Assembly (NCBI GenBank): GCA_963716175.1
Contig: OY970296.1
Location: forward strand, 1,952,001 to 2,016,000
DNA length: 64,000 bases
Reading direction: 5' to 3'
DNA from: an uncultured Armatimonadetes bacterium
GTDB taxonomy: Bacteria > Armatimonadota > Hebobacteria > Hebobacterales > Hebobacteraceae
In this document: positions 12,149-63,091 of the stretch, in pieces
How the letters are laid out: every line of letters begins with the position of its first letter
Numbering within the stretch: position 1 is the first letter of the stretch
The notes under the pieces: generated by a model
What the model saw: the letters and a program-made list of their open reading frames with translations, nothing else
The model's database searches: none
What the model was told of the DNA's origin: nothing
Program-made: the position numbers and the translations under genes

Positions 12149-12313
12149 GACGGCCCCGGCCACCCCCGACTCCGGCTGCCCCCTCGGCTGGGAGGCATTG
12201 CCAGGGTCTCCGTCACCACCCATCGTAGACGACTCTTCCCCGACACGCGAGTCACAGCCTTCCGGTTGGCGGCGTGATGTCAGGCCGGCTTCACCGGTGC
12301 GTGACAGGGACAC
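12149..12313 (+). repeat. junction hairpin repeat copy 1 (G-type left flank, type I extension)
   Basis: GACGGCCCCGGCCACCCCCGACTCCGGCTGCCCCCTCGGCTGGGAGGC plus ~100-bp extension shared with 24381 and 37857. Confidence 0.9.
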
Positions 12314-12367
12314 GTAGACTCATGACGCGCCGGTAAGACTGAGAGAATCCCGACGTCTGCCCGCCGA

Positions 12368-15300
12368 TCACACGGTGGCTGGGGCCGCGTCCACGGCGAG
12401 CAGCGCTTCCGCGTGCACAGCGAAGCGTTCGAATTCCTCTCTCACTCGTTCGAATTGTTCGCGCATCTCGGCAAGAGACCCACTGCGACTCACGCCCTCC
12501 AACACAGCCGCGGCCGCGCTCAGCGCGTCCGCTGACACCATCGCCGCTCCCCCCTTCAGCCTATGGCCGAACGCTGAGACGGCCGTCGCGTCCCCTCGCG
12601 CCAGCGCGTCCCCGAGTTCAATCAGCTCATGCGGAGTGCGTGCGACAAACACCCCAACGACCTTCCGCAGCAAAGCGAGATCCCCCGCGCAACGCGCCAG
12701 GGCGCCTTCGTAGTCAAAGGAAGCCGCCACTGTCGAGGAGCCCGAGGGTCGGCCGATCGCCTGCATCGGGAGAGTTCGCGCCTGCGTGGACAGCGACAGA
12801 GTTCCTTTGCTGGAGGGGGCCCATTTGGCGATCATCTCAAGCAGACTCTCCGGCGAGACCGGCTTAGTGAGGTAGTCGTCCATGCCCGCGGCCAAGCACT
12901 CCTCGCGGTCAGCGGTCGTCGCAGAGGCCGTCAGGGCGATGATGGGGAGGTGCGTGCTAGGAGTGAGGGCGGCGCGGGCGCGGATTCGCCGCGCGGCGGT
13001 ATAACCATCCATCTCCGGCATTTGGCAGTCCATCAGCACAAGGTCGTAACTGCGGCTGGTGGCAAGGGCAACCGCCTCCACACCATTGGCAGCGATATCA
13101 CACTGCAGACCTTCGCTCTTCAGTATCCCCTGAGCCACCAACTGGTTGGTCTCGTTGTCCTCAGCCAGCAGAATGCGCAGGTCGCGCGGCAAGGAAGGGG
13201 CATGGGAGGTGGACGCCGCACGAAGCGGCGATGGGTGGCCAGGCCGCCCGCCTGAGAGATGCAGCGCGTCCATCAGCGCGTCGAGCAGGGCTGACTGCCG
13301 TACCGGTTTGGTCAGGAACCTCGATACGCCGAGGGCCTGGTACTGCCGCCGGTCCAGACCAGAACCGATCGAAGTGAGTATGATCAGGACAGTCCCACTG
13401 ACCTTCGGATTGCCACGGACTGCCTGCGTCAGTTCCAGACCATCCATCCCAGACATCTGGTCATTGACCAGCGCGATGCGGAAGGGATTCCCTTGGTTCG
13501 CGGCCTCCAGCAGGAGATCGAGTGCCTCAGATCCATGAGCCGCGGCTACGCTCGTGATGCCCCAAGTTCCCAGTTGAGCCTGAAGAACCTGACGCTTGAT
13601 CGCATTGTCATGGACTATAATCACCCTTGCCTTGCGGAGGTCCGGGCTCCCGTCAGCACCCTGGGATGGCTGTGCCGCGGCCCCGCGCCGGAGAGGAAGC
13701 GTGAACCAGAACGTTGTCCCATGAGAGAGAACGCTCCCCACTCCGATCGTCCCCCCCATCAGCTCGACAAGGCGTTTGGAGATCGCCAGTCCCAGCCCAG
13801 TTCCACCGTACTTCCGCGTGGTTGAGGCATCCGCTTGAGAGAAGGACTGGAAGAGCCTGTCGAGTCGGTCTGCCTCGATGCCCGGTCCCGAGTCTTGCAC
13901 TGAAAGGTGAGCCACCCCATGCTCTTCGTCGATTGCCTCCCATCGGCATCCGAGCACCACCTGCCCCTGCTCGGTGAACTTGAGCGCGTTCCCGATGAGG
14001 TTGCTCAACACCTGCCGCAGACGGTGGCTGTCGCCGACCATCGGGCGCGGCAACTCGGGGGGCAGATCAGGTATCAGCTCGAGCTTCTTCTTCTGCGCCT
14101 GCTCGGCGAAAGCCTCCAGGACGCTCTCCAACGTGTCACGCAGATCGAACGTCGCCTGCTCTACCTGCATCATCCCGGCCTCGATCTTGGAGAAGTCGAG
14201 GATATCGTTGATCAGGCTGAGCAGCAGATCGGCGGAGTAGACGATGGTGCTGGCATACTGCTTCTGCTGTTCATCGAGTTCGGTCTTCAGCAGGAGCCCG
14301 GCCATGCCGACGACCCCGTTCAGGGGCGTGCGGATCTCGTGGCTCAAGTTGGCCAGGAATCGGCTCTTCGCTTCCGTTGCTGCTTTCGCTTGCTCGGCCA
14401 TCTCCTCCGCGTGCTGCCGGGCTTCGGTCAGCTCGGCGTTCGACTCAGCTAGTCGACTGTTCAGCAGGCCAACATCTTGGTACAGCCTGATGTTGTCGGA
14501 GTAAGCCAGTACCTGCCGGATCATGACTAACGCCATGAATGCGAAGCCGATCAGGACTACCCCTAACGAGACGAAGCCGTCTTCCTGTACGTCCTGAGTA
14601 AGCACGAACGCGAATGCGGAGAATGCCAGGAGGTAAGGCAGGATGGAGCGGAGAGAGTCGCCCCGGTGAACGTGAATGGGAACCGTAAGAAGCGCCGTCG
14701 GAGCACCTGTCGAATTGGCTGCGGCGCGCGCCGCAACGAGAGGAGCGCACGCAATGAGAGTGCACCCGACGTTCCAGCCCAAGTCGCCCCACTGCCCGCT
14801 CTGGTACCTGGCTGTCGCGACGGAGAACCAGTAGATAGCATCCGCAACTGACATCGCAAGCATGCCCACGGCAAGGGTCCCCATCGCCAATCGCACCCCC
14901 CGTGCCAACCGCGCCGTTGACATGAGCGCGGCCACGCACACCAACACCGCGAGATCGCCGAGGCAGTACGCGATGTTGACGCTCTTGCCGAATACCGAGA
15001 TCTCGGACTGGCGCCAGAGCGGCCCCACCAGGTAGTACCAACTGAGGACCCCCGCGGCGCTTGTGAGCAGAGCACTGTCCAGGAGGAGACGCGCTTTGCC
15101 GGCGAAGGACAGCGGTTTCAGAAAACACAGGGTGCCTGCCAACAGCGGGACGTAGAACGCGACGTAGAAGAGATCGGCCCAGCTTGGAGTCAGGACACTG
15201 ACGTGTCGTATGACCTCGTAGTACGTCCAGACAAGATCGCCCAGCATGTAGATGAAAACGGCGATCCCGATCAGCAGCCAGCCCGAGCTTTGCCACGGTG

Positions 15301-17318: not shown

Positions 17319-18719
17319 AACTATCATAGAAGCGGCTTGCCCTCGCGGTGCCGAATCAGAGGCCTGACCGATAGCCTCAGAGGAGGACAAGCCAGAGATG
17401 CTCTATGTGGGATTGGATGTGCACAGCCAGTGGACCACGCTCCGGGGCTTCGATCCCGAGACCGGCGAGATCGTGGAGCGTGCGCGCATCAGCAATGAGC
17501 CGGAGGTGATGGCCGTCGTGCTCGGGGAGCTGCCCGGCCCTTTGCACGGGGTGATGGAGACGGGAACCAATGCCTGGTCCATGTATCGCGTGCTGAAGCC
17601 CTACTTCGCCCGCCTGGTGATCGCGGACCCGGCGCAGTTGTGGGATCGCAAGCGGGATCGTAGTGCGAAGACGGATCGGCGAGATGAGATGCCCTGCGCA
17701 TGGCGCAGAAGCTGTATCGGGAAGAGATCAAGGGGATCTATGTACCGGACGAGCATACCCAGGATCTGCGGGTATTGGTGCGGGGCAAGGTGCGAGCGAC
17801 CCGGTGGGTGACGAAGCTGGTGAACGAGATCGGATCGTTGTTGCGGTGCTGGGGGGAGGTCGAGTCCAAGAGCCTGCTCTCGAAGCGGGGGAAGGACCAC
17901 TTGGACGCCGCGCAGTTGCCGGGACATTCGGCGCGGGTGCTGGAGCTGTGGCGAGAGATGCTGGAGAAGGCGCAGGAGATCGAGGCGGAGCTGGAGGTGG
18001 CGATCAAGGAAGAGGCCGAGCGTGACGCGGTTTGCGCGCAGTTGCGCACGATGCCCTCGGTAGGGCCCTTCACCGCGTTGGCGGTGCGAGCCGAGATCGG
18101 CGACATTCGACGCTTCCCCAGTTCGGCGGCATTGATCTCCTATGCCGGCCTGGCACCACGCGTCTTCCAGAGCGGAGAGCACTGCCGCTATGGGCCCTTG
18201 GGACACCGGGGCAATCCCTGGCTGCGGTACGCACTGGGCCTGCTGGCGAACCGGATGGCCTGCCAGGGCAAGGGCAGTCGCCTGCATCAGCGCTACTGGC
18301 GGATCCAGCTGCGGGGGCATCGCAATGGCGCCAAGATGGCCGTGGCGCGAAAGGCCACGCATCTGATCTACCATCTCTTGCGCACCGGGCAGCCGTGGCG
18401 GGAACTGGCACCGGAGGAGCACGTGCAGGTCACGGTTTGATCGCGAGCGGCTGGAGCTCGCACCCTTGGCGGGAGCACTCCCCCTCAATCGGCTAGCCGC
18501 GCAGACGGCTCTCGATGAACTGGGAGGCTCCCCATCCGCGACGATAGCATGCGCCCCGGAGCGCCGATAGCGAACTCGCGAGAAACCAGCCGCGCACAGA
18601 TCCTGGGCGAGCCACGGCGGGCTCCACCACAGCGGGGGTTCCGCCCTTGCGGCTCGCGGAGAACGCATGTGACGTGAGGAAAGAAGGCACTGATGAGGAC
18701 TTGACGCCGCTTCTATAGC
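17319..18719 (+). mobile_element. IS110-family, IS1111-type element (ends approximate)
   Basis: Sub-terminal IRs ATAGAAGCGGC (17326-17336) / GCCGCTTCTAT (18706-18716); TTGACG at the right end, TATCAT at the left end; ~260-bp downstream non-coding region. Confidence 0.8.
17398..18440 (+). pseudogene. IS110 transposase frameshifted by a GAGAT duplication (17681-17690)
   Basis: YVGLDVH, VMETG, KTDRRDA, YAGLAPRVFQSG, AVARK; removing 5 bp joins the two ORFs. Confidence 0.9.
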
Positions 18720-19111: not shown

Positions 19112-21460
19112 TTACATCGGCAACTCGAACGCGCGCTGCACATATGCCGCCATCTGGTCCCGGGTCACTTGCGCGCTGGGCCGGTAGGTGCCGTCGTCGT
19201 AGCCCTGCACCACGTCGTTCTCCACGCAGGCCTCGACCGCGGTGCCGGCCCAGAACCCGGCCGGCACATCCGGGAACAACTCCGGCGCCGTGTCCATCGG
19301 CTCCCCCAGCTTCACCCACCCCAGGGCGCGGGCGATGAACACAGCCATCTGCCCCCGGTCCACCACCACCTCCGGCCGGTAGTGGGTGGAGTCGTAGCCG
19401 GCCACCACCTCGCGGCTCACCGCGTACTCGATGTACTCGTAGGCCCAGTGGGTGCTTGGCACATCGTCCGGGAACGAGACCTGAGCGGGGCTGGTAGGGA
19501 CATGCTCCTCCCCGCCGGCCAAGGCCCGCGAGATGTAGACTGCCATCTGGTCGCGGGTGACCGGGAGGTCGGGCTGATAGCTAGCATCCGGATAACCCCC
19601 GACGATGTGGGCAAGGGCGCAGGCTCCGATCTGATCGTAGGCCCAATGGTCAAACGGCAAGTCCGCGAACCAAGGGACCCGAAAGCGGACCATCTGACCG
19701 TTCTCGGTGTCCGTTACCCACACAGAGTCATCGTTCGGATTCACGCACACGGATCTCGGGCCAACAAGGTCCCCTCCTCGCCACAGTTCAGCGCCGCTTG
19801 CCGCCAGATGAACGAGTTGGCTGTTCTCCTTGTCGGCCACCCAGCAGGAACCATTTGTCCAGTTGGCCGAGAGTGCCACGAACCCGGTTGCCGCGTAGCC
19901 GCTTCCTCTCCACAGCTCGCTGCCGTCCGAGGCAAGATGCGCGATCCCGTTGGCGTCCACGATCCAGCAGGAGCCGTCGCTGGCGTTGACCGCAACGAAC
20001 CGGGCACCGGATCCCTGCCACAGGATCACGCCGTCGCGTGATAGGTGGACGAGTTCGCCGCCTGCCACCCAGCAGGAGCCGTCCACTGGGTTGACGGAGA
20101 CGGAGACGGGACTGCTGAAGCCGGCTCCTCGCCAGAGTTCCGTTCCGTCGGGAGCCAGGCGCACCACCTCGCTGGTTGACGCAATCGTCCAGCATGAGCC
20201 ATCGGTCGGATCCACGGCGAGGCGCGTTCCGGAGTATGGGACCGGAGGAGGGCCGCCTCGCCACAGCTCGTCACCATTCTGCGCCAGATGGACAATCTGG
20301 TGGTGCAGGTCATCAGCAACCCAGCAAGAGCCATCCGCCGGGTTCGCTGACACATCGTCTGGCTCGTAGAAGTCTCCTCCCCGCCAGAGTTCAGCCCCAT
20401 CCGCCGCGAGATGCACAACCTGGTCGTTGGAGGTATCGGCTACCCAGCACGAGCCATCCGTGGGGTTGACGGACACGGCCTCAGGCCAGTTGCAGCCGCT
20501 GCCCCGCCACAGTTCGGCCCCGTTCGCCGCAAGATGCACGATCTGGTTCTGGCCCACGTTGGCCATCCAGCAGGATCCGTCTTGCGGGTCTGAGGATACG
20601 GACACGGGGCCGAAACCCATTGCCTGCCACAGTTCCTCGCCGCTCTCGCTCAGGAGCAGAATCTGCCGGTGGTATTCGTCGCCGACCCAGCAGGACCCGT
20701 CGACCGGGTTCACTGCTACGCAGTAGGTCGGGGAGAGGCCGCCGCTCCACAGCTCGGCACCGTTTGCCGCTAGGTGCTTGATGTGGGCACCTCCGACCCA
20801 GCAAGATCCGTCCGTGGCGTTGACGCTGACGGAGGAGGCACGGCCATCTACTCGCCACAGCTGTGTCCCGTTGGCGTCCAGGTGTGTGATGCCAGTAGAA
20901 TCCCCAACCCAGCAAGAGCCATCGGCTGAGTTCACGCAGACCGACTTTGGTGCAGGGAATCCAGGGCCTCGCCACAACTGCGACCCGTTCGCAGCCAGGT
21001 GCACCACCTCGTCGCTGCCCCAGCTAGCCACCCAGCAGGAGCCGTCCGAGGGGTTTGCGGACACCGCCATGGGATAGGTGAAGCCCTCCCCTCGCCACAG
21101 CTCAGAACCATCTGCCGCCAGATGCACCACCTGATTGTGGTAGGTGTCAGCCACCCAACATGACCCATCCGTCGAGTTGGCCGAGACCGAGGTAGTAAAG
21201 GCCTCGCCATCCGGGCCGAGCCAGATGGCATTGCGGAACCCATTGGTCTGACTCAGGATCACACCGCTGTCGGCTAGATGCATCACGCTGTTCCCAGTGG
21301 CCGCCCAGCACGAGCCATCCGTGCGGTCCAGCGACACTGCGAGAGGGGTTCCGAACGGGCTGCGCCAGGCCTCGATGACTTCTTCGGCTGGTGCAGGACA
21401 GGCCGCAAGGCAGAGGATGAAGCAGAGTGTAAGGCCGAGCAGCAGGCGACGCGTTCTCAT
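19112..21460 (-). CDS. secreted SLH-domain protein with ~14 NHL-like repeats (SVNPxDGSCWVAD)
   Basis: Signal peptide; ~40-aa tandem repeats; three C-terminal SLH repeats. Confidence 0.9.
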   Translation of the reverse strand: MRTRRLLLGLTLCFILCLAACPAPAEEVIEAWRSPFGTPLAVSLDRTDGSCWAATGNSVMHLADSGVILSQTNGFRNAIWLGPDGEAFTTSVSANSTDGSCWVADTYHNQVVHLAADGSELWRGEGFTYPMAVSANPSDGSCWVASWGSDEVVHLAANGSQLWRGPGFPAPKSVCVNSADGSCWVGDSTGITHLDANGTQLWRVDGRASSVSVNATDGSCWVGGAHIKHLAANGAELWSGGLSPTYCVAVNPVDGSCWVGDEYHRQILLLSESGEELWQAMGFGPVSVSSDPQDGSCWMANVGQNQIVHLAANGAELWRGSGCNWPEAVSVNPTDGSCWVADTSNDQVVHLAADGAELWRGGDFYEPDDVSANPADGSCWVADDLHHQIVHLAQNGDELWRGGPPPVPYSGTRLAVDPTDGSCWTIASTSEVVRLAPDGTELWRGAGFSSPVSVSVNPVDGSCWVAGGELVHLSRDGVILWQGSGARFVAVNASDGSCWIVDANGIAHLASDGSELWRGSGYAATGFVALSANWTNGSCWVADKENSQLVHLAASGAELWRGGDLVGPRSVCVNPNDDSVWVTDTENGQMVRFRVPWFADLPFDHWAYDQIGACALAHIVGGYPDASYQPDLPVTRDQMAVYISRALAGGEEHVPTSPAQVSFPDDVPSTHWAYEYIEYAVSREVVAGYDSTHYRPEVVVDRGQMAVFIARALGWVKLGEPMDTAPELFPDVPAGFWAGTAVEACVENDVVQGYDDGTYRPSAQVTRDQMAAYVQRAFELPM

Positions 21461-21970
21461 CCGACCCGCCTCTGACGTCAGAGTCCGCGCAGGGCGCGGT
21501 ACTGCTGGAGAGGAACCGAACTGCTGATGCCCCATACCACGCGGCACTCAGTTCGCCTGCTGCTAGTGCCTGAGATGGCACCCAGGAACGACCTCACAAC
21601 CCAGAGGGGACAGTGTCTGGCTGTCACACGGGCTTGAGGCATCCGCTTCGCGGCACATGTCAGCCCTCTGCACCTGAGAGCAGGAGTGAAGGACCGCGCC
21701 GACGCTGAGAACAGATCAGGAACTCGGGCCTGTCGGGATCGTGGTTAGCAGAGCGATGGATGAAGACGCGGGGTGGACCCGGGCCCCACGCCGTGAGATG
21801 ACCACGGGCGCCCTTGCAGGAGAGTCAGGCTACTAGCCGGTAGGCGGTGATACCGGTGTCGGCAGCGACGCGTCGCTCGAGATGGCGTGCGAGAGTGTTG
21901 GCTGGCTTCTCAGGTTCAGTCCGCTCTTCGACGTGACGAAGGCCCCGGGCACCCCCCGACTCCGGCTCCC

Positions 21971-23263: not shown

Positions 23264-23621
23264 CTCCCCCCTCGGCCGGGAGTCACTGGGCGGGGTCCCG
23301 TCGCGTGTGGGTGGGCGGGCTGCGCGCATCTGGTGGTTCCAGCCTCCAGCCAGATCGAGTGCCCACGATAGACGGGGGGATGCCGTCAGGGCGAGGCTGG
23401 GGCGGCTCTAAGGCGAGGTGACCCCTACAGCTGGGCGCAGGCGGAGAGCATGCTGATCTCATCCTGGGTCTCTACGCCCAGGGGCGCGGCAGCGGCGCCG
23501 AGTCACAGGTGGGATCGTCTCGCCGTTCGGCCGTTCGGCTGTAGTTGACGCCCTCCCCGCGGCCTGTTAGCATCCACGTCGCAGTTGCTCTCTCCACTGC
23601 CAAGGGGGAAGGAGGGGTGCC

Positions 23622-24335: not shown

Positions 24336-24380
24336 CGCGCACGCGTGAGTCAGCCACCGGCCGGCGCCACGCTCGTGCGT

Positions 24381-51113: not shown

Positions 51114-51165
51114 TTCGGGCAGGGAGGCGATCCTCGACTGGCGAAGAAAGCTTCAGATCCGTACC

Positions 51166-51296
51166 ATGATCGTCTGCCGGGGAAGCTAGCGAAGGCTGAG
51201 GGCGAGTGCAAAGGTACAAGCGCAGGAACGCCGGAGGTGTAGCTGGCCCCAGCCCCCTTCTGTGCCGGAAGCGCTGACACTCTGCACGTTCTTTGG
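51166..51296 (+). mobile_element. solo right end of an IS3 related to 8352-10081
   Basis: Aligns with 9960-10081 and 26619-26741. Confidence 0.75.
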
Positions 51297-51323
51297 GGGC
51301 AAGGCCAGTCTCACCCACCACTG

Positions 51324-52867: not shown

Positions 52868-53123
52868 CTCAGCGAGAACGAAGCAGCGCCATCCCACCGC
52901 GGAGCGGACCTCTGGCAGCGGCCCCGTCGCGGTGCCGAGCACCGGCGGGCGCACCCATTTGAATCCCAGCGAGGTATCCTTCATCGGCTCGGCGTAATCC
53001 CGGACCAGGGCTGTCAACGAGCGCAGGGAATACCACCCATGGGCTCTGCAGGGGCCCTGAGAGCCAGATAGGTTTTCGGACAGCGCAGGTACAGGCGGCG
53101 CCACGAGACGAGAGAGTCGAAGA

Positions 53124-54869
53124 ATGAGAGCGGTTATCTTCCTGAGCTGTGTGGTGGGCCTGATGGCAATGCCCGCGGGCTGTGCGGCCGCAACGGATGC
53201 GGTCAAGTCACAGAAGCTGGTGCTGGAGGCGCCGACAGTTCATTGCCTGGGGGTGAGATGGTATGTGGCCGGGGATGAGAACGGGAACGCCTCGGTGCAG
53301 GTGAGTTATCGAGAGAAGGGGGAGAGCAGTTGGCATCAGGCGATGGACTTGTTCCGTGTGGGCACCGGGCCGGATTCGCAGGAAGGCGAGAAGCGACTCG
53401 AAAGCGGGGGCCGAGACGAGTGGCCGTTCCCGCTGGGCAACTTCTTCGCCGGAAGCGTGTTCGATCTGAAGCCAGACACGGTGTATGAAGTGAGGTTTGC
53501 CCTCTCTGATCCTGACGGCGGGAGGTTCGTGGAGAAGGTGCAGGCCCACACGCGCATGATCCCCGTGTCGCCGAAGCCGGAACGCACGCTCCATGTGGTA
53601 CCCGGCGCCGGGGGCGGAAGTGGGACACAGGAGGACCCGCTGCGCGGGCTGGAGGCGGCGGATGCGGTGGCCAGGCCGGGCGATCTACTCCTGGTGCACC
53701 AGGGCGTGTACCAGGGGCCGTGGGAGACCGACAAGAGCGGGAAACCGGGCGCGCCCATCGTATGGCGAGCGGCGGGAGACGGGGAGGCGGTGGTGGACGG
53801 CGGCGGGGCGCACCGGGCGGTGGGGGCAAACCAGACCCATGATCTGTTCTTCGAGGGGCTGGCGTTCCGCAACGCAGACTTCGTCTTCGTCGCGCACGGA
53901 GCTTCCAATCTCTCCGTGCAGCGGTGTCACTTCTACCAGTGTAACTACGGCTTCACCGCCCACAACAACGAGCCGCCCATGGGCGGCTTCTACATCGCCG
54001 ACAACCTGTTCGAGGGGCCCTCCACCTGGCCGCGCACGAAGGGGATCGAGGATGCGCGGGCGATTCAGGTGTCCGGTGAGGGGCACGACATCTGCTACAA
54101 CCGCATCCGCGGCTTTGGCGACGGCATTGACATCATGGGCTCCCCTCCCGGCCGCGCCATTGACTTCTACAACAACGAGATCTCCGAATGCACCAATGAC
54201 GCCATCGAGCTGGACTACGGCCAGACCAATGTGCGCGCATTCAGGAACCACATCACCAACTGCTTTGAGGGCATCAGCACCCAGCCGCTCTATGGTGGGC
54301 CCGCCTATATCTTCCGGAACGCTATGTACAACCTGGAGTACACTCCCTTCAAGATGCACAACCGTCCCTCTGGGGTATTGCTCTTCCACAACACGATAGT
54401 GAAGAGCGGCATCCCGTGGCCCCTCTACTCGGGCGCGCCAGTCGGGAAGGCGATGTCCTGCAACAACCTCTTTGTGGGCGGGCCGGCGGACTATGCGATG
54501 GAGTTCAGCCCATTGGTTGAACAGGCTCACTTCGACCACGATGGATTCGCGGGCGGACCTTTCGCCATGTTCGCCAAGTGGCGTGGCGAGCGATATGTCA
54601 CATTTGGTCACTTCCGGAGCCAGAGCGGCATCGAACGCCACTCGGTCTGGCTGGGGAACGGATCCCCCTTCGCCTCCGGGGTGAAGGTGCCGGCCAATCT
54701 CAGCGAGCAGTTCCCGATCACCGCCAACGACCTCCGGCTGAAGCCGCAGTCACGGGCTGTTGACGCAGGTCTGGTCCTCCCGAACCTGAATGACGGCTAC
54801 TCGGGCAAGGGACCGGACCTGGGGGCGTACGAGCTAGGGCAGGCGCTGCCACACTATGGGCCCCGGTAG
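53124..54869 (+). CDS. secreted right-handed parallel beta-helix protein
   Basis: Signal peptide; PGDLLLVHQGVY; Asn-ladder repeats; PDLGAYE C-terminus. Confidence 0.85.
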   Translation: MRAVIFLSCVVGLMAMPAGCAAATDAVKSQKLVLEAPTVHCLGVRWYVAGDENGNASVQVSYREKGESSWHQAMDLFRVGTGPDSQEGEKRLESGGRDEWPFPLGNFFAGSVFDLKPDTVYEVRFALSDPDGGRFVEKVQAHTRMIPVSPKPERTLHVVPGAGGGSGTQEDPLRGLEAADAVARPGDLLLVHQGVYQGPWETDKSGKPGAPIVWRAAGDGEAVVDGGGAHRAVGANQTHDLFFEGLAFRNADFVFVAHGASNLSVQRCHFYQCNYGFTAHNNEPPMGGFYIADNLFEGPSTWPRTKGIEDARAIQVSGEGHDICYNRIRGFGDGIDIMGSPPGRAIDFYNNEISECTNDAIELDYGQTNVRAFRNHITNCFEGISTQPLYGGPAYIFRNAMYNLEYTPFKMHNRPSGVLLFHNTIVKSGIPWPLYSGAPVGKAMSCNNLFVGGPADYAMEFSPLVEQAHFDHDGFAGGPFAMFAKWRGERYVTFGHFRSQSGIERHSVWLGNGSPFASGVKVPANLSEQFPITANDLRLKPQSRAVDAGLVLPNLNDGYSGKGPDLGAYELGQALPHYGPR

Positions 54870-55016
54870 CCGCCGCCGGGCGCGCCGCCAGCGGGGGCGG
54901 AGGGTGGAGCGTTCATGCCCAAGGGGCAGTCGGCGAGAGTGATCGTAGAGGGAGTCGGCCTGGTCCACCAGGACCGCGGACAGGACCGGCCCCTCGTTCT
55001 TATTCACGGCTCTGGA

Positions 55017-55171
55017 TGTCCACCGCTCGTGAAGCCGGCCTCAGGGCACCTCTCGACTCCGGCTGCCGCTCGTCTTGGAGTCACTGGACGGGGTTCTATC
55101 GCGCAGGCAGGGAGGACACCACGGCAGGTCCGGGGCCGGCGCTCGCCGCGGTCACCCGTGCATACCGGACC
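55017..55171 (+). repeat. junction hairpin repeat copy 10 (A-type left, type III extension)
   Basis: A module, core, then GGTCCGG...CCGGACC hairpin. Confidence 0.85.
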
Positions 55172-55195
55172 TGGGATTGCCCCGCAAGCCCCCGA

Positions 55196-55750
55196 TCAGT
55201 CATGGTGGCCTATGGTCTGCTCGTCTCTCTTCGCTAGGTCGAGGACCATGTGGATGTCCTCTGGTTCGCGCTCGTATAGCTCCCTGTTGACATCCAGCGT
55301 CGGGCGGAAGCCGCGGCTGCGGTAGAACCCGACGGCCGAGCGCGACGGGGTGGCAGAGACGTACAGCGCGGCCGACCCCGCGTCTCGGGCAAGCCTCTCC
55401 ACCTCCTGCGCCAACCGCGTCGCAACACCCCGACGACGGTGAGTGCGACTGACCCACAGTCCCCCGAATTCGGACATGCCCGGGCTCAGGTGGGCACGGA
55501 AGATCGCAAGGCCCACAAGGAGATCGCCCTCGAACGCGCCGATCATCACGTCCCCCCTCACCAGGCGCTGGCGGATGCGTTCGACACGTCTGCTGCACTC
55601 CTCATCACTCCATCGGGCTCTAGTCCACTCCTCGGGTACGGCCACCACCTCGCCGTCGATCCACTGGTAGACGATGTCTCCATGCTCGGAGACATCCAGC
55701 TCGCGGAGGCGCTTGGCCTCATCTGGCCCCATCCATCTGGTCTCGATCAT
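55196..55750 (-). CDS. GNAT family N-acetyltransferase
   Basis: LWVSRTHRRRGVA, SATPSRSAVGFYRSRGF, EPEDIHM. Confidence 0.9.
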   Translation of the reverse strand: MIETRWMGPDEAKRLRELDVSEHGDIVYQWIDGEVVAVPEEWTRARWSDEECSRRVERIRQRLVRGDVMIGAFEGDLLVGLAIFRAHLSPGMSEFGGLWVSRTHRRRGVATRLAQEVERLARDAGSAALYVSATPSRSAVGFYRSRGFRPTLDVNRELYEREPEDIHMVLDLAKRDEQTIGHHD

Positions 55751-55875
55751 CGTAGATCTCTCCTGCCTCCGAGCGATGTGGCCTGCTCCCGCGCTATGTC
55801 TCCTCGCCGGTGAAAAGGAGACGCCTTCATTGCTTCGCCAACCTGCAAACGTGGCCCAATGGCGTCTGCTTCCCT

Positions 55876-56030
55876 CTGTCGCTGTCAACCGCCCGTGAAG
55901 CCGGCCTGAGGACACCCCCGACTCCGGTTGCCCCTCGGCTCGGAGTTGCTATCCGGGGGTTCGTCTCGTATGTGTCCGGTATGGCAGGGCAGCCGCCCCA
56001 CGCTGGCGATCTTGGGCGGGCCCGCCCAGT
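55876..56030 (+). repeat. junction hairpin repeat copy 11 (A-type left, type II extension)
   Basis: A module, core, then GCAGCCGCCCCACGCTGGCGATC. Confidence 0.85.
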
Positions 56031-56211
56031 TCGGGCCCCGACCAACTCCTAGCCCATCCCCAGTGCCTCCCAGACCAGGGATGTCCGCGAGGGCACAGAA
56101 TGGCACAAGAGGGGCTGTGCAGGGGGTCCGGGAGCCATATCGGCTTGCAGACATGATGATCTCGCCCTTCGCGGCGCTCACCATACCAACCACCTAGCGG
56201 GAGCCAACCGC

Positions 56212-57177
56212 ATGCGCGACATCCGCGTTGCCAGCGTCCAGTTCGAACACGCGCCCGGTGGTAAGCAGGCAAACCTCGACAAGATTCGTCACTTCGTCGC
56301 CGAGGCTGCCTCTCAGGGCGTGGAGATGATCGCCTTCCCGGAGTGCTGCATCACCGGCTACTGGTTCCTGCGCCACCTGTCCCACGATGAGATAGCCGCT
56401 TTGGCAGAGCCGCTGTATGACGGTCCGTCCTGCCAGGAACTGATGGCTCTGTCGCGGCGGTACGGGATAACGATTGGCGCGGGCATGATCGGGATCGAGG
56501 ATGGCCGGCGGATCTACAAGCCCTACGTGGTGGCGATGCCGAACGGCGAGTTCCGTCACCACCGGAAGCTCCACCCTTTCGTCCACCCCAGCATTGTGCG
56601 CGGCGGTTCCTACACGGTGTTCGACACTCCTCACGGCTGCCGCGTCGGTGTGCTCATCTGTTATGACTGCAATATCATCGAAAACGTGCGCATCGCCGCA
56701 CTGATGGGCGCGGAGGTTCTGCTCGCACCCCATCAGACCGGCGGCTGTCGCTCCAATGACCCCAACATCATGGGGATCATTGACCGCGCGCTCTGGGACA
56801 ACCGAAGTACCAACCCCGAGGCCATCGAGGACGAGTTCCGTGGCGAGAAGGGAAGAGGCTGGCTGATGCGGTGGCTGCCTTCCCGCGCCCACGACAACGG
56901 GATGTTCCTCATCTTCAGCAACGGGGTGGGGATAGATGATGATGAGGTCCGCACGGGCAACGCTATGATCATCGATCCCTATGGCCGTATCCTCTCCGAA
57001 ACCTGGAAGGCCCAGGACGATATGGTGGTGGCCGACCTCGACGCATCCCTGCTGCCAGAAAGCACCGGACGGCGGTGGATCCGAACACGCCGGCCCGAGC
57101 TCTATGGTCCGCTCAGGATACCCACCGGTCTTGAGCAGGACGCACGCGCGGTGCGGTTCGACGGCAAAGGCGCTTAG
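56212..57177 (+). CDS. nitrilase / carbon-nitrogen hydrolase family protein
   Basis: Catalytic E-K-C: FPEC, HRKLH, ICYD. Confidence 0.93.
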   Translation: MRDIRVASVQFEHAPGGKQANLDKIRHFVAEAASQGVEMIAFPECCITGYWFLRHLSHDEIAALAEPLYDGPSCQELMALSRRYGITIGAGMIGIEDGRRIYKPYVVAMPNGEFRHHRKLHPFVHPSIVRGGSYTVFDTPHGCRVGVLICYDCNIIENVRIAALMGAEVLLAPHQTGGCRSNDPNIMGIIDRALWDNRSTNPEAIEDEFRGEKGRGWLMRWLPSRAHDNGMFLIFSNGVGIDDDEVRTGNAMIIDPYGRILSETWKAQDDMVVADLDASLLPESTGRRWIRTRRPELYGPLRIPTGLEQDARAVRFDGKGA

Positions 57178-57508
57178 CCCAACTACGCCCGGCTCGGCCT
57201 GACCTGTTTCGTCTGGCTGTGCACCCCAATAGCCCTATCCAAGCACTCCTGGGCGGTTCTCTTCCCGGCTGAGTCGGTGCTATCCTTGCCTCATGAGTAC
57301 CGTTTCGAGCTTCCTGTCTAAGGGATGTTCCGTCAAACGTCGCCCGCGAGGCGTCGGACGCCCGCCGTGACCAGCCGGTCGCGGAACATGCGAGAGGCGG
57401 CCAGACACAAGGTCCGCTGTATCGTGGCACCCCGACCGGAGGCGCAGTGATCAGAGTTGAAGGGCCTGCCAGCAGCACCCTAGTGCGGGCCGCCGAACAT
57501 GCGTCGGC

Positions 57509-57642
57509 GGCGGCCCCGAGCACCCCCGACTCCGGCTACCCCCTCGGCTTGGAGTCACTGTCCGAGGTCCGGTCGCGGACGGGAGAGCGCATCGCGCGGG
57601 TCCGGTACCGGCGATCACTCGGCCGCCCGGGCATGCCGGACC
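57509..57642 (+). repeat. junction hairpin repeat copy 12 (G-type left, type III extension)
   Basis: Near-consensus core plus GGTCCGG...CCGGACC. Confidence 0.9.
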
Positions 57643-57657
57643 GACGGCGGCAGCCGC

Positions 57658-59643
57658 CTATCCGAACCAGACCTGGTAGCCCGCGACAAGATCGGGTACT
57701 GCGGCGCCCACCAAGCCCCAGACGACGCCCGCGGTGAACACGTGGCCCAAGGCGAAGCCGAGGAAGCCTGGAACGGCCGCCCGGTAGAGCTTCATCCCTC
57801 CGTACCGTAGGATCAGCACCTTGCACAGCCACACGACGAGGAACGGGAACCAGACCAAGTCACCATAGGCAGTAGCCACGGCAAAACCGAGAGGGTGGAA
57901 TGGGGACCATCCGAGGCGTTGCCGTAGCCAGATCAGCGCGCCGGTCGCGACCACGCCCCATCCGGTGGCAGCGATGCGGGCCGGATCGGGCGCGATAGGA
58001 GCCCGCATCGCAGCCATCACCTCTCCGAAGTCACCCTGCGCGAGGTCGCTGCCCCAGATTGCGCCGTCGCGCAGATGAACGGCGCCGTATCGGTAGTAGG
58101 GAACGAAGTGGAAGTAGTACGCCACACCCAGGCCAATGACGAGCGCTAACATGACCGCGACCGCCATGTGCGAGGGCTTCATGCGGGTCTGCTCCGCAGT
58201 CTTGAAGCTGTCCACCTGGTAGCCGATGAGGGCCGGGAAGTAGCCGCGGGACAGGAAAGCCAGCAGCGCAAGCATAGTGAGCGTCGCCGGGTGGCCCCCT
58301 TGCATGAACACTGCTGTCCCCAGGGTGTAGAGCAGGATCTTCTTCTGCATCCAGAAGGGGAAGGCCCAGACCAGGGGCATGCCCGCTTCCGCGCGGATGC
58401 GCGCACACACGAGTGCCACCAGGCCGAGGATGACCATGTAGGCGATGGCCACCCAGGCTGCCATCCCCGCCATACCGCAGAACAGCAGCACGAGCAAGGA
58501 GCTCACCACCAGGCCTACGAGCGCCCATCGGAGTGGGAACGGCGCGCCCGCGTCACTGGGGCTTCGGGCCCGGCTGAGCAGCTCAGCAAGAGCCTGCCTG
58601 ATGGTGCCGCGTGCCGACCACAGCAGCCCAAGCCCCAGGAGGAGGAACGCGCCAAGGCTCTGCTCTTGCGGGTATGGCACGTCGGCAGCCGCATAGCCAT
58701 AGGAGGCAATCAACAGGGCTTCGAGCTTGTAGACAAGGAAGAAGAACCAGATGGAGAAGCTGATCTCGGTGGAGACCAGGAACCCGAAGCCGATCAGAAC
58801 CGGGGTGAAGTAGATAGGGAGGGGGAGTACGGAACTCCAGGGCAAGCTCGGAGAGGCCGGTCCCACATAGCCATACCAGGCTAGGCCGGGTAGTGCCGGA
58901 TAAAGCGCGTGCAGGATATTGACGAGGTTGAAGAGGAAGGTCAGGCTGAACCCGACCCACATGACAGGATTGAGGAAGAATGGACGTCGGGTCGCACGTC
59001 CCATTGTCGGACTGGTCATCTCCAGGGCGAGCTCGACGATGGGGAAGCTGAGGCGTTCCTCCTGGACCCACCGCCTTCGCACCAGTGCCACCATGCACAG
59101 CATGGCGGTCCAGAATGCCGCAAGGAAGCCGCTCCAGACCAGAAGAGGAACCAGCCACGCGCCCCAGGGGACTGGGCCTGACCCCATATACAGACCCTCT
59201 ACGATCGCGGGGCTGTGGGGCGCCATCCAGTTGGGTATCCACCGCTGGAGTGAAACCAGATCGTTCTCCGGCCTGGCGAAGTAGAAGGGGTACGTCACCG
59301 AAGCCAGCCAGTACCGGATCACTCCAACCCCGGCCATCGAGATGGCAATCCCCACGAAGGTGTAGATCGCGAGGATCTCCACCCGGCTCAGTTGCGCCCC
59401 CCGCCGGATCGCGCGCAGGAGTGGGTTGATGGCCAGCAGGAGCATCAGCGCGCCCAGGGCGGGGATGGCGGGCACTGCCTCCGATATCTGGGTCGAGATC
59501 ACGACGATCTCGGCCTGCCGGACCCAGAGCCCGCAGGTGATAGTGAGCAGGACCGCGATTAGGAGGGCTCGCCAGGTCAGCGCCTCCGAAGCCTCCTTCG
59601 CAGTCTGCGTGGCGCGTGTTCGTCCCGGACCAGTCGCGGTCAT
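57658..59643 (-). CDS. DUF6785-like polytopic membrane protein (putative peptide transporter)
   Basis: WVQEERLSFP, RIRAEAG, PFHPLGF, LRYGG, PGFLG motifs. Confidence 0.85.
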   Translation of the reverse strand: MTATGPGRTRATQTAKEASEALTWRALLIAVLLTITCGLWVRQAEIVVISTQISEAVPAIPALGALMLLLAINPLLRAIRRGAQLSRVEILAIYTFVGIAISMAGVGVIRYWLASVTYPFYFARPENDLVSLQRWIPNWMAPHSPAIVEGLYMGSGPVPWGAWLVPLLVWSGFLAAFWTAMLCMVALVRRRWVQEERLSFPIVELALEMTSPTMGRATRRPFFLNPVMWVGFSLTFLFNLVNILHALYPALPGLAWYGYVGPASPSLPWSSVLPLPIYFTPVLIGFGFLVSTEISFSIWFFFLVYKLEALLIASYGYAAADVPYPQEQSLGAFLLLGLGLLWSARGTIRQALAELLSRARSPSDAGAPFPLRWALVGLVVSSLLVLLFCGMAGMAAWVAIAYMVILGLVALVCARIRAEAGMPLVWAFPFWMQKKILLYTLGTAVFMQGGHPATLTMLALLAFLSRGYFPALIGYQVDSFKTAEQTRMKPSHMAVAVMLALVIGLGVAYYFHFVPYYRYGAVHLRDGAIWGSDLAQGDFGEVMAAMRAPIAPDPARIAATGWGVVATGALIWLRQRLGWSPFHPLGFAVATAYGDLVWFPFLVVWLCKVLILRYGGMKLYRAAVPGFLGFALGHVFTAGVVWGLVGAAVPDLVAGYQVWFG

Positions 59644-59870
59644 GGCCTCTCTGTGCTCGCCCAGCGATCTGTCCTGCCGGTGGTCTGGCGATATGCGGCA
59701 CGGATGTCCAACAGGATGAGACGGCGTGCGATTGTCACATCGGCACGGAACGCCTGTCAAGGCGTGGATGGGCGCAGTCCCAGTCGGCCGACGCCGCTGC
59801 CTTCCGGGCAGTCGGGACCGGACTCTCAGCAGGGCACGTAGGGTCCGCCACAGTGGAGCATCCGGGCCCG

Positions 59871-59935
59871 CCCCCGCGCGTCGACCCCTCGACTCCGGCT
59901 ACCCCCTAGCTGAGAGTCACCGTCAGGGGCCTCGT
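59871..59935 (+). repeat. junction hairpin repeat copy 13
   Basis: ACCCCTCGACTCCGGCTACCCCCTAGCTGAGAGTCAC. Confidence 0.85.
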
Positions 59936-60147
59936 GGCCTGTAGGATGGCGATCTTCCCCATCCAAGAGCGGCAGACTGCCTCAGGAGGTATAGGGGGCA
60001 GCGGGCCGAAGAGGTCCCTCTGTGGTGGGTGAGCAGCTGGGCGCACCAGGAGGACGATGACCTTCACCTTGGGCGCGGCGCATCCTCTGCGGAGTTGCAC
60101 GCTTACTCAGGAGCTTGTGACGCCCAAGGCACAGGGACGGGCTAGCG

Positions 60148-62805
60148 ATGAGAACCAGTAGTGTCGTTGCTGCAGCAATCCTTGTTGGTCTGCTCGCCAC
60201 GTCTGCGCAGGCGGAGTGGGAATCGTTCGGGCCAGGCGGCGGTGGCTGGCTGTGGTCACTGACGGTCGCGCCCGATGCCGCCGGGACGATCTACGTGGGG
60301 TGCGACGTCGGGGGCGTATACCGTAGCTCCGACCACGGCAGCTCCTGGTCGATGGTCACCACGGGCCTCCAAAACTACTACGTGCAGGCCCTCGCGGTCG
60401 ACGCAGCGCGGCCGTCCACGGTCTACGCTGGCACTCGTGGCGGCGTCTACAAGAGCGTGGACGGCGGCGACCATTGGGCGATGAAGCGAAGTGGCTTCCC
60501 TCCGCTCGCGATCTGGGACACTACGGCGCCCGTCGCCTCGGTGGCGATCGACCCAACGGATAGCCGCCACCTCCTGGCTGGCATCGGCGACCCGCCGACC
60601 AGGCCGATGGGCTGCCGGCGCGGTGGCATCTATGTGTCGCACGACGCCGGCGAGACCTGGAGATCGGTCAGCTCCCCAGCGACATTCTCCCAGGCACAGG
60701 TCTACTCCATCGTCTTCTCTCCCCACAGCCCCAAGCTCGTTCTTGCGGCGACGTCCAGCGGCGTCTTCCGCAGCCGCGATGGTGGTTGGACGTGGGCGAA
60801 GTCCGGAAGAGGGATGCCGTCCCTCGCCGCGGTCGGGCTCTGTCCCGACGGCCGCCGACCTGGCGTGTTCTACGCCACTTTCCTCGATGATCGGACGCGT
60901 TCGGGCGGAGTCGCGAAGAGCGGCGACTTCGGCCTTACTTGGCGCGTCGTCCACTCCCGGACAGGCGAAGGCTACCAGTTTTGGCGTGTCCTCGCCGACC
61001 CCACGAAGCCAGACACCGCGTATGCGGCGGTCGCCACCGACCCAGGCATTCTCAGGACGAGTGATGGCGGCAAGAGCTGGCTGCGCGTCACCCGCGACGA
61101 TAACGTGCGTTCCGCCTGGTTCGGCCGCGGCTTCATCTGCACAGCCTTCGCGATCGATCCCAGAGACCCGCAGCGGCTCTACTATGCCAACGACATGGAC
61201 ATCTACGCTACCGACGACAGCGCTCACACGTGGCATCAGATCGCCACCGACCAAGTCAGACAGCCGGGTCCCGATGAGTGTGCCTCCTGGCGAGGCCGCG
61301 GATTCGAGACCACCTGCAGCTCCGCCATTGCGGTTGCTCCGGGGTACCCGAACCTGCTCTATCTCGGGTACTGGGACACTGGCCTTTGGGTGAGCTTCGA
61401 TGGTGGCCGGACGCTGAGCTGGAGCACGGACTGGATGAGCTATGGCAAGGCGGCGGCAGTGGCCGTTGACCCCAAGTGCCCCTGGCGAGCGTGGATGAGC
61501 TTCGGGCCGAACGAGGGCCCGCATCGCATCTGGCGCACGGACAACTACGGCAAGGACTGGAGGCTGGTCGGCTACGAAGACACCGGTCTCCCCTCCGGCG
61601 CGATCTTCTCACTCGCAGTTGACGGGTCCAGCCCATCCGAGAGCCGGATTCTCTACGCGCCGGTAGCCGGCAGGGGGGTCTACAGGTCTCAAGACGGGGG
61701 CGAGGCCTGGCAGCGAGTAGACGACGGGCTGGGCGGCAATCTGCAGTTCACTGCTTTGGTTCTGGACCCGCGAGACCCGGATGTGATGTACGCTGGGATT
61801 GCCACCGATGAGGGACGACAAGGGTCAGGCGTCTGGCGAAGCGAGGACGGCGGCCGACACTGGTCACTGATCGCCAGCATCCCCGAACGGCCTACCGTCG
61901 CGGTCGCTCCGTCCGATCCGAACGTCATCTACGTCGGCGAGCGGGACTACTCCAGCGTTGGGAAGGGCGGCCTCTACCGCAGTTCCAACCGCGGCGGGAC
62001 CTGGCAACTGATGGCTGAGAGGGTCCAGGCCGGCGTCGGGAACCTGGCGCGCACCTACATCAGAGACCTGGCCGTCGACCCACGCGACTCTAACATCGTC
62101 TACGTGACCTCCATAGACGAGAGCTACGATCTCAGCTGCGGCAAGGGCGTCTTCGTGTCCCGCGATGGCGGCCGCACCTGGCAGGCGATGAATGACGGAA
62201 TCACCAACCTGAACGTCGAGAACCTCGTGCTCGACCCGAACCAGCCTGACCGCATGTACGCGGGCACCGGCGGCAATGGATTCTTCCGTTGGGGGAACTG
62301 GGCCGAGGCCAAGCCATTGCCGGCCGTGCCGGAGTCGCCACTACCGCCCGATCCCAACTGCCTTGCTGCGAACGGATGGACCTGTACGGCCGACAGGCGG
62401 CATGAGATCACGGTCCGCGACGAGGCCTTCTGGTGGGGCCGCGGCTATGTGCTCGCCCGCCTGGACGCTTCGTCGCCCGGGGCCAGCGTTAGCAGGGAGT
62501 TCGCTGACCCGCTCGACCTCTCCCGAGCGAAGGTGGTTTCTTTGCGTCTGCGCGGGAAGCCGGCTGACGACGAGGCGCTGTGTCTCTCTCGGATCGTGCT
62601 CTACGATGTCCACGGCCATCAACTCATCTATGAGCCCGATGTGGAGCTTCACACCACGTGGGCTCTGGTTGAGCTTCCGCTTCGAGACTGGTCCGGCGCC
62701 GACTTCGACCGTTCGTCGGTCAGGCGGATCGAGTTCGTTTTCTGGGTCCCCTACCCCGGCGGAAAGCCCTATGAGTTCGCCGTAGGCGGAATCAGGGATC
62801 GGTAG
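60148..62805 (+). CDS. secreted BNR/Asp-box repeat (VPS10/GH74-like) protein with C-terminal CBM-like domain
   Basis: Many SxDxGxTW Asp-boxes; GPGGGG N-terminal motif. Confidence 0.9.
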   Translation: MRTSSVVAAAILVGLLATSAQAEWESFGPGGGGWLWSLTVAPDAAGTIYVGCDVGGVYRSSDHGSSWSMVTTGLQNYYVQALAVDAARPSTVYAGTRGGVYKSVDGGDHWAMKRSGFPPLAIWDTTAPVASVAIDPTDSRHLLAGIGDPPTRPMGCRRGGIYVSHDAGETWRSVSSPATFSQAQVYSIVFSPHSPKLVLAATSSGVFRSRDGGWTWAKSGRGMPSLAAVGLCPDGRRPGVFYATFLDDRTRSGGVAKSGDFGLTWRVVHSRTGEGYQFWRVLADPTKPDTAYAAVATDPGILRTSDGGKSWLRVTRDDNVRSAWFGRGFICTAFAIDPRDPQRLYYANDMDIYATDDSAHTWHQIATDQVRQPGPDECASWRGRGFETTCSSAIAVAPGYPNLLYLGYWDTGLWVSFDGGRTLSWSTDWMSYGKAAAVAVDPKCPWRAWMSFGPNEGPHRIWRTDNYGKDWRLVGYEDTGLPSGAIFSLAVDGSSPSESRILYAPVAGRGVYRSQDGGEAWQRVDDGLGGNLQFTALVLDPRDPDVMYAGIATDEGRQGSGVWRSEDGGRHWSLIASIPERPTVAVAPSDPNVIYVGERDYSSVGKGGLYRSSNRGGTWQLMAERVQAGVGNLARTYIRDLAVDPRDSNIVYVTSIDESYDLSCGKGVFVSRDGGRTWQAMNDGITNLNVENLVLDPNQPDRMYAGTGGNGFFRWGNWAEAKPLPAVPESPLPPDPNCLAANGWTCTADRRHEITVRDEAFWWGRGYVLARLDASSPGASVSREFADPLDLSRAKVVSLRLRGKPADDEALCLSRIVLYDVHGHQLIYEPDVELHTTWALVELPLRDWSGADFDRSSVRRIEFVFWVPYPGGKPYEFAVGGIRDR

Positions 62806-63023
62806 TTGTGCACCACAGACGCGCTATCTGGGCGTTCCGGGCGAATGCGAGCAGCTGGTGCCGCGGTCAGGCCGCTAAGTGTCAGCCGCCTCCTGATGTA
62901 GACCACCGCCGCCGAATCCGAATTCCTGCGCGCAGGGACCAGTGACCGCTCTTCCGGGCCTGATCCGGTGTTTCCTCAGGCCTACCGCAGGGCGTCCGGC
63001 CGCCCCGCCGAACCATCCTTGCC

Positions 63024-63091
63024 GACGGCCCCGGCCACTCCCGACTCCGGCTACCCCTTCGGCTGGGAGTCAGTGTCCAGGATGCGTCGCG
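63024..63091 (+). repeat. junction hairpin repeat copy 14
   Basis: GACGGCCCCGGCCACTCCCGACTCCGGCTACCCCTTCGGCTGGGAGTCAGTG. Confidence 0.9.

Follow-up and report, generated by a model that had tools for sequence, protein, structure and literature searches.

A stretch of 64,000 nucleotides from an uncultured Armatimonadetes bacterium (positions 1952001 to 2016000 of contig OY970296.1, referred to here as the window) carries, between positions 12149 and 63091, a short repeat that recurs on one strand between genes. The question raised by this locus is whether the repeat is a DNA-level recombination site that builds arrays of gene cassettes, as proposed in the initial annotation, or an intergenic repeat of another kind. 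The genome to which the window belongs, G000, is a single contig of 4.56 Mb with approximately 65% G+C. The architecture is real and strongly non-random, and it falls outside integrons, outside the repetitive extragenic palindromic (REP) families with their REP-associated tyrosine transposases (RAYT), and outside dif-type sites. Our preferred reading, held tentatively and at not quite even confidence, is that the repeat is a recombination-junction element, either dedicated to that role or at least the cause of the junctions, and that it organizes a cassette-like array. This array is not an integron.

Clustering and local co-orientation of the repeat

The chromosome of G000 was scanned with a profile built from 12 copies of the window, which gave 102 copies, 71 on the + strand and 31 on the − strand; a covariance model of the repeat, as proposed in the initial annotation, gave 96. 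The copies are not scattered, as they occupy 12 of the 46 bins of 100 kb. Gaps shorter than 15 kb make up 88 of 101, whereas random placement gave 28.8 such gaps on average and never more than 43, and the copies fall into approximately 8 tracts that span 392,905 bp in total, or ∼9% of the chromosome. The expected strand bias was observed locally: from copy to copy along the chromosome the strand changes 8 times, whereas 10,000 shuffles gave 43 changes on average and never fewer than 27.

The orientation of the repeat is independent of that of the neighboring genes. Genes were called with a crude codon-usage caller, on which the per-interval gene counts and orientations depend. With upstream and downstream taken relative to the repeat, the flanking genes are (+,+) at 40 copies, (−,+) at 28, (+,−) at 20, and (−,−) at 14, which bears out the claim that sites lie between genes of all orientations, including divergent ones (28 of 102). 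Single genes fill 45 of 86 intervals, 5 are empty, and 36 hold 2 to 15 genes; the single genes point the same way as the repeat in 24 cases and the opposite way in 21, so that cargo is indeed carried in either orientation. The intervals have a median length of 1.8 kb, with a 75th percentile of 4.1 kb and a range of 0.3 to 14 kb.

The main alternative, which we consider somewhat unlikely, is that the repeat belongs to a non-autonomous intergenic mosaic similar to REP sequences and bacterial interspersed mosaic elements (BIME) or to miniature inverted-repeat transposable elements (MITE). The element would then be a composite of ∼235 to 300 bp that spreads by transposition, strand-tied insertion would give the polarity, and the cassette-like appearance would arise secondarily, through homologous recombination, gene conversion, and horizontal transfer involving the many copies. 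The GC skew, which places the origin near 1.15 Mb and the terminus near 3.55 Mb, gives 92 of the 102 copies along the direction of replication, in favor of this alternative. At the level of tracts the agreement is only 8 of 11, and because of this and of the noise in the skew, replication polarity is not relied upon here. Confinement to ∼9% of the chromosome is, moreover, atypical for REP or MITE families.

Recurrence and reordering of modules at the repeat

Whole modules recur in new neighborhoods. Four complete repeat-to-repeat units were found more than once within G000, with different neighbors each time: units of 394 nt (92% identity), 819 nt (98.7%), and 1,035 nt (94.5%) and a unit of 714 to 778 nt that occurs in three places with 97 to 98.5% identity. 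The order of the recurring units, as read from the lists of copies, is shuffled between tracts. The repeat travels mostly with the module located 3′ of it, which consists of the core, an extension of 110 to 190 nt, and at least one gene. One example module carries its own ribosome-binding site (RBS) and a terminator-like hairpin.

Among the shortest modules is one outside the window, at G000 1917459-1917953, with a 19-codon lysine-rich open reading frame (ORF; MAGCKTKKTCGTKKKAAKK) as its sole content, together with an AAGGAGG site and a terminator-like hairpin.

Comparison of 31 genomes of the class showed 66 copies in G005 and 26 in G011, which form one genus in the same family as G000, itself of another genus. 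One copy each was found in G001, G003, G009, and G014, and none in 24 genomes. Strand uniformity extends to the relatives: in G005 all 12 contigs with at least two copies are strand uniform, and in G011 one tract has 14 of 14 copies on the + strand and another 13 on + and 3 on −. Metagenome contigs were picked by an exact match to the central motif, and three of them appear to be duplicates of others; among the 34 with at least two model matches, 32 are strand uniform and 2 are mixed.

The gene neighborhoods differ across these genomes at the repeat. In G011 a repeat joins two genes that in G000 lie apart, one to the left of the repeat at 2258926 and the other to the right of the repeat at 2093646. 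Four gene links downstream of the repeat are kept between G000 and the other genus, with a different upstream side. An 821-nt stretch inside a module (G000 2092315-2093135 and G005 locus L155:693-1512) is 96.5% identical, which suggests a recent transfer of module DNA between the genera, because orthologous proteins are typically 70 to 90% identical.

Natural breakpoints are enriched at the repeat. Breakpoints were defined as unique points in contigs or genomes at least 92% identical where both sequences go on but diverge. Of 50 such points, 15 fall within the repeat ± 20 nt, which covers 3.6% of the bases and corresponds to 8 times chance, and 12 more fall within 200 nt. Duplicated and reordered cargo at the borders marked by repeats was thus seen on three levels: inside one genome, from one genus to another, and among environmental strains. 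The genome-wide scatter and static cargo order named beforehand as evidence against a recombination site were not what was observed, because the copies are clustered and co-oriented and the cargo is reshuffled at their boundaries.

In the four best public sequencing runs, searched as short Logan contigs, “joints” between repeats with sides of 25 to 33 nt appeared at high depth in every bin; these are ascribed to cross-matching among repeat copies and not to excision products.

Under the preferred reading, the repeat would mark the borders of independently transcribed gene modules in a few plastic tracts, and modules would be duplicated, exchanged, and reordered at the repeat sites, the repeat being the cause rather than a passenger of the junctions. 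The most likely mechanism would be conservative recombination between co-oriented copies, in which a module either leaves as a circle and reinserts at another copy or is replaced through two crossovers in the flanking copies. RecA-type or structure-provoked exchange is a possible catalyst of this module exchange.

Copies of the repeat in the window

The repeat is a clade-specific, asymmetric element of ∼78 bp, in which the central 30 bp (CGACTCCGGCTaCCcCCTCGGCtkGGAGTC) are best conserved. Its identity across genera is ∼85%, where orthologous proteins are 70 to 90% identical. Among all copy pairs, similarity runs more than 40 nt rightward in 365 pairs and leftward in 25. An extension of 190 nt (R1) is common to 30 copies and one of 115 nt (R2) to 16. 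R2 ends in an inverted copy of a 24- to 27-nt module (T-module). The T-module occurs 47 times, whether adjoining the 5′ edge of the core, in this inverted form, or alone beside other repeat types.

The 14 sites listed in the initial annotation are all real and on the + strand: a regular expression for the core gave 13 matches on + and none on −, and a stricter gapped pattern gave 4 matches against 0.00 expected from 100 shuffles. Twelve are full copies, whereas the site at 21935 is a 5′ half only and that at 40482 a 3′ part only. The 3′ half of the copy split by an insertion sequence (IS), at 23264-23311, had been omitted, and the starts placed at 26424, 55017, and 55876 include an extra module of 24 to 27 nt, the cores starting at 26439, 55032, and 55898. 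Intergenic siting holds for every copy in the window and, by the crude gene calls, for 98 of 102 copies genome-wide. The copies and associated features are as follows.

893-1063, + strand: C-terminal fragment (residues 258 to 314) of an Xer-like tyrosine recombinase of the subfamily that accompanies the arrays
12146-12223, + strand: full repeat core followed by the 115-nt R2 extension, with an inverted T-module at its end (12283-12306); nhmmer E = 1.4e-14
21935-21970, + strand: 5′ half of an IS-split core, whose end ...GACTCCGGCTCCC abuts the left end of the IS directly
21971-23263, − strand: IS481-family IS of 1,293 bp with a 379-aa transposase (22024-23163); Pfam rve/HTH, NCBIfam transpos_IS481
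23264-23311, + strand: 3′ half of the IS-split core; nhmmer profile positions 32 to 75
24377-24454, + strand: full repeat core with R2 extension (inverted T-module at 24515-24538); profile and alignment
26424-26516, + strand: T-module (26424-26447) fused to a core (26439-26516); regular expression and profile
27974-28050, + strand: repeat core with diverged 3′ arm; regular expression and profile
37854-37931, + strand: repeat core with R2 (inverted T-module at 37992-38015), the best copy of the window; E = 1.9e-17
40455-40532, + strand: 3′ part of a core (true match from ∼40482) followed by the 190-nt R1; profile positions 28 to 76
42987-43064, + strand: repeat core; profile
51048-51125, + strand: repeat core; profile
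55017-55109, + strand: T-module (55017-55040) fused to a core (55032-55109); profile
55883-56170, + strand: full composite of T-module, core (55898-55974), and R1 extension; profile and R1 alignment
57506-57583, + strand: repeat core; profile
59868-59945, + strand: repeat core; profile
63021-63097, + strand: repeat core; profile

The IS481-family element of the window is inserted in the repeat loop, where 5 bp of target (CTCCC) are duplicated, and its transposase scores 261 bits against transpos_IS481 (cutoff, 224). Three further full copies lie at G000 1725520-1726812, 1904479-1905771, and 1934793-1936085, and all four occupy the same position of the repeat loop, face the same way, and have a duplication of 5 bp, either CTACC or CTCCC. 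The element is a site-specific IS with the repeat as its target. Sequence resembling its end also opens the 714- to 778-nt module that is repeated three times. REP and BIME are preferred IS targets, and this shared property speaks for the REP- or MITE-like alternative. IS families likewise target attC sites, and the constant insertion point and orientation also count in favor of the preferred reading. Targeting by IS families is described for pdif sites as well, according to an excerpt of a published study (PMC10132070).

Other mobile elements are found at or near the repeats. The window holds an IS21-type element at 46794-50269 (IstB, 46794-47561; C-terminal part of IstA, 47554-48393), seemingly interrupted by a Mutator/IS256-type IS of 1,456 bp (transposase, 48480-49865) with 100% identical copies elsewhere, for example at G000 2808801-2810256. 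A fragment of an IS110-family transposase (Transposase_20) lies at 17700-18440 on the + strand. A 1.7-kb IS110-family IS has four copies that are 99.6 to 99.9% identical, of which that at G000 782976-784690 lies at a distance of 224 nt from a repeat. No exact match of the central motif was found in viral contigs and no blastn match of the composite element in plasmids or phages.

As for the cargo, Pfam searches confirmed the GHL10, GNAT, CN_hydrolase, DUF6785/DUF6784, and BNR/Sortilin assignments of the initial annotation, whereas “lipoprotein,” “DUF4424,” and “DUF5916” were not recovered at an E value of ≤0.001 among the submitted ORFs. The nitrilase module spans positions 55975 to 57505. Further cargo in the window comprises beta-helix proteins, PD40 and SLH/NHL repeat proteins, a hybrid histidine kinase, and transposases of the IS21, IS256, and IS110 types. 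Two surface-protein genes, at 30940-36768 and 19112-21337, are very long and internally repetitive, one with PD40 (TolB-like) repeats of a 174-nt period and the other with SLH/NHL repeats of a 123-nt period, and the direct repeats listed for the window stem mainly from these genes. At 165-256 on the + strand lies a c-di-GMP-I-GGC riboswitch aptamer (RF03167; 74.1 bits, gathering score 59), upstream of a 128-aa ORF (360-746) with no Pfam family; a repeat copy just outside the window precedes the aptamer by ∼310 nt.

Fold and integron-like features

The consensus is an imperfect palindrome (RNA minimum free energy, −38.7 kcal/mol). From the outside inward it consists of a 5-bp stem, a bulged TT, a second stem of 9 bp, and a 5/2 internal loop, followed by the innermost stem, GACTCC/GGAGTC, which encloses GGCT-ACCCCCTC-GGCT. 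This matches the hairpin first described for the repeat, for which neither stability nor covariation gave support. DNA folds of five real copies compared with dinucleotide shuffles gave z scores of +1.16, +1.35, −0.26, +0.85, and +0.90. No structural covariation was detected in 47 copies from three genomes, where 76.8% of cells are paired compared with 76.3% in partner-shuffled sets, and 100 of 500 such sets reached or exceeded the real value. RNAalifold gave no consensus fold for 64 cores or for 29 R1 extensions (−4.6 and −2.4 kcal/mol), and Rfam contained no match to the repeat or its extensions at the gathering cutoff or at an E value of ≤1. The conserved feature of the repeat is not its fold.

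Co-oriented imperfect palindromes that separate mostly single genes at a median spacing of 1.8 kb recall a canonical integron array or a cluster of attC sites lacking an integrase (CALIN). We give this explanation next to no credence. The whole genome yielded no IntI, the best match to TIGR02249 scoring 90.1 bits against a cutoff of 265. The RYYYAAC/GTTRRRY pair of attC sites is missing on both strands, as already noted in the initial annotation: the consensus reads GTTCCGT/ACGGAAC, where the TT of GTTCCGT is the bulge and has no AAC partner and the opposite-strand ACGGAAC has no GTT partner. Many gaps exceed the 4-kb rule used for clustering, and the absence of covariation also argues against attC sites. 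Finally, single genes lie in both orientations (24:21), and some modules have expression signals of their own; integron cassettes seldom contain promoters, according to an excerpt of PMC4889954.

Mosaic structure and signals in the extensions

The build of the element bears most directly on the REP- or MITE-like alternative, which is favored by the modular assembly of T-module, core, and extension. T-modules yield ends similar to terminal inverted repeats (TIR) in a few copies, for example those at 1951775 and 2067575. A solitary T-module (42774-42797) stands with a truncated rve transposase-like start 213 nt upstream of the core at 42987-43064. The element is strictly intergenic, its copies decay without compensatory change, and the positions of its junctions vary, as expected of homologous exchange. 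No target-site duplication of the repeat element itself was identified.

Other results speak against this alternative. Clean presence or absence of the repeat accounted for none of 5 indel polymorphisms, a small sample. A cognate transposase was not found: searches for Y1/HUH transposases gave five weak matches to PF01797 (Y1_Tnp; 23 to 36.8 bits), at 0.96, 1.20, 3.13, 3.63, and 4.05 Mb, none of them in a tract or beside a copy. Real copies are not unusually stable hairpins. Moreover, copies that are ∼80% identical over 78 bp are poor RecA substrates, which weakens homologous recombination as the source of the cassette-like appearance.

The R1 extension raises the further possibility of a cis-acting expression element, such as a terminator or insulator, a leader, a small-RNA locus, or a type I toxin-like locus. 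Its repetition would then reflect the need of plastic regions for transcription units that are self-contained. On its − strand, R1 carries an extended −10-like sequence (TGGTATTCT), GGAGG, and ATG, which open a conserved hydrophobic peptide of ∼20 codons (..ERGLDWAGLPVIATVARLL) that is intact in approximately 10 of 30 copies. On the + strand a gene starts shortly after R1 in 23 of 30 copies, as read from the table of neighbors, and the loop ACCCCCTC resembles an anti-Shine-Dalgarno sequence. We nevertheless consider this explanation very unlikely. The repeat is oriented independently of the neighboring genes, and the frame and stop of the small ORF are conserved no further than ∼20 codons. The core, which occurs also without R1, ends in the consensus GCGnATGGG with no T-tail of the kind expected of an intrinsic terminator, and 0 of 6 copies at 50000-64000 of the window were called terminator-like. 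Neither the Rfam searches nor the fold predictions for core and R1 pointed to a conserved RNA.

Junctions and candidate recombinase

The initial annotation anticipated a recombinase at the ends of the array. An Xer-like tyrosine recombinase was found 5′ of and divergent from the repeats, at some distance from them, and no recombinase could be tied to the site. The Xer-like enzyme is the sole candidate. The subfamily has SAM_1 and Phage_integrase domains, with XerD (1a0p) as the best solved relative; it scores 232 bits against the XerC model (cutoff, 335) and 63.5 to 66.2 bits against TIGR02249 (cutoff, 265). Copies at least 84% identical are present in multiple copies in exactly G000, G005, and G011, the same three that carry arrays. 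Of 8 intact or near-intact copies, 7 are located 5′ of the repeat closest to them and on the opposite strand, at a distance of 7 to 34 kb, and C-terminal fragments occur in and beside the tracts, including that at 893-1063 of the window. This layout resembles that of intI and its array; it could equally reflect integrative defense islands and repeats that share plastic regions. A recombinase island using the repeat as its attachment site was considered and rejected, as a second junction was not found.

Both intact copies in G000, one of them at 808875-809825, have as divergent partner a conserved small ORF of 51 to 64 aa (G000 806126-806320 and 2243595-2243750; ..MSLSK(L/F)L(Q/R)D(S/A)ILVY..GYEPGTSLANWTA..) without a Pfam or NCBIfam match, which may be a partner or regulator of the recombinase. 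Separately, adjacent tyrosine recombinase genes, 2 to 3 in a row, lie outside the repeat tracts at G000 2841-2843, 2959-2961, and 3032-3034 kb; these three sets look like “recombinase in trio” elements.

A bolder and unlikely reading is that of an undescribed Armatimonadota cassette platform, in which the divergent Xer-like, non-IntI tyrosine recombinase at the head of the tracts would act on directional sites of ∼78 bp. The sites would be double stranded with one-sided accessory arms, and self-expressing modules of 0.3 to 14 kb, with genes in either orientation, would be excised and reinserted to give arrays of 15 to 120 kb with ∼100 modules per genome.

Several observations weigh against the repeat as a causal junction element. 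Inside the tracts it is present at only 79 of 269 gene boundaries. A single fixed crossover nucleotide was looked for in the module families and breakpoints and not found; the junctions form a group at the 5′ edge (positions 0 to 13) and a 3′ group (positions 50 to 92). For the module families Fam2 and Fam4, the repeats that border the modules upstream are much less alike than the modules themselves, which are 94.5 to 98.7% identical; the same holds for the downstream repeat of Fam4, and the downstream end of Fam2 is not at a clean repeat. Later gene conversion among the ∼100 copies could have blurred the junctions. As for the enzyme, 3 of 28 genomes free of arrays also have members of the recombinase subfamily: G008 and G012 each contain one copy that bears a stop codon, and G018 contains relatives of 68 to 71% identity. 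No recombinase adjoins two of the tracts (B and C), and restriction-modification or defense genes, different at each locus, lie between the intact recombinases and the repeats. A search with filters off for an attI-like or degenerate site beside five recombinase loci gave an unconvincing best E value of 0.064. The repeat is, moreover, embedded in a mosaic of repeated modules (T, R1, and R2), as in REP/BIME or MITE families, and the composite of core and R1, once also with T, is single copy and non-syntenic in four other genera, where it resembles a mobile intergenic element, again in keeping with the REP- or MITE-like alternative. Kinship also limits the independence of the comparisons, as G005 and G011 belong to one genus and some metagenome contigs are duplicates. 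Taken as a whole, the claim of a DNA-level recombination site is partly supported: it gains from the absence of scatter, the co-orientation, and the reshuffling of cargo, and is not borne out with respect to a recombinase tied to the site, a fixed junction, or the hairpin.

Relationship to known systems and significance

The arrays share with sedentary chromosomal integrons and CALIN the long runs of co-oriented, imperfectly palindromic sites, the mostly single-gene intervals, the shuffling of modules, a site sequence that is homogeneous within a lineage, and a dedicated IS that targets the site. They differ from them in having no IntI, no R and L boxes, and no conserved fold or covariation. 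Genes run either way, some with signals of their own, and intervals reach 14 kb; in addition, the repeat stays with the 3′ module, as drawn here, and the junctions are not defined to a single nucleotide.

Gene modules that lie between short recombinase sites and are shuffled from one replicon to another are also known from the pdif modules of Acinetobacter plasmids and from integrative mobile elements exploiting Xer (IMEX). There, according to excerpts of the sources, the recombinase is of the XerC/D type and IS target the site in a fixed orientation (PMC10132070, PMC6449649, PMC13141974). In the repeat studied here, a dif-like 11-6-11 core is not evident: the core has only the 6-bp inverted arms GACTCC/GGAGTC, 17 to 18 bp apart, with direct GGCT repeats inside them. 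Whereas pdif sites measure 28 bp, alternate in orientation, and are plasmid borne, the sites described here are ∼78 bp long, co-oriented, and chromosomal, with ∼100 per genome.

REP and BIME sequences are extragenic, GC-rich imperfect palindromes in ∼100 copies, form mosaics with other motifs, and serve as IS targets, and in all these respects the repeat is similar to those found with RAYT. In contrast to them, it is gathered in a few tracts and not dispersed, occurs as single co-oriented copies and not as inverted pairs, lies between divergent genes in 28 of 102 cases, has no flanking RAYT, and does not form unusually stable hairpins. The pneumococcal BOX elements, the Neisseria intergenic mosaic elements (NIME) with dRS3, and the Correia elements are composites of reusable submodules at rearrangement junctions and variable gene islands. 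The present element resembles them in being a composite (of T, core, and R1 or R2) associated with rearrangement; it is unrelated in sequence, and they are dispersed and do not form directional arrays that bound gene modules. No published description of this arrangement was found in the literature covered, which mostly excludes subscription journals.

Even as a mosaic intergenic repeat, this is a clear natural example of a short sequence that concentrates rearrangement breakpoints and structures ∼9% of a chromosome, in a phylum where the genome layout of an isolate was termed “seemingly disorganized” (PMC4959169). The finding supplies a concrete sequence open to testing, along with a candidate enzyme. 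Should the repeat function as a recombination site, there would be a second way of capturing gene modules as integrons do, independent of the first, in a phylum that has received little study. Its rules would be different: a folded attC and IntI would be absent, and the modules would come with promoters of their own.

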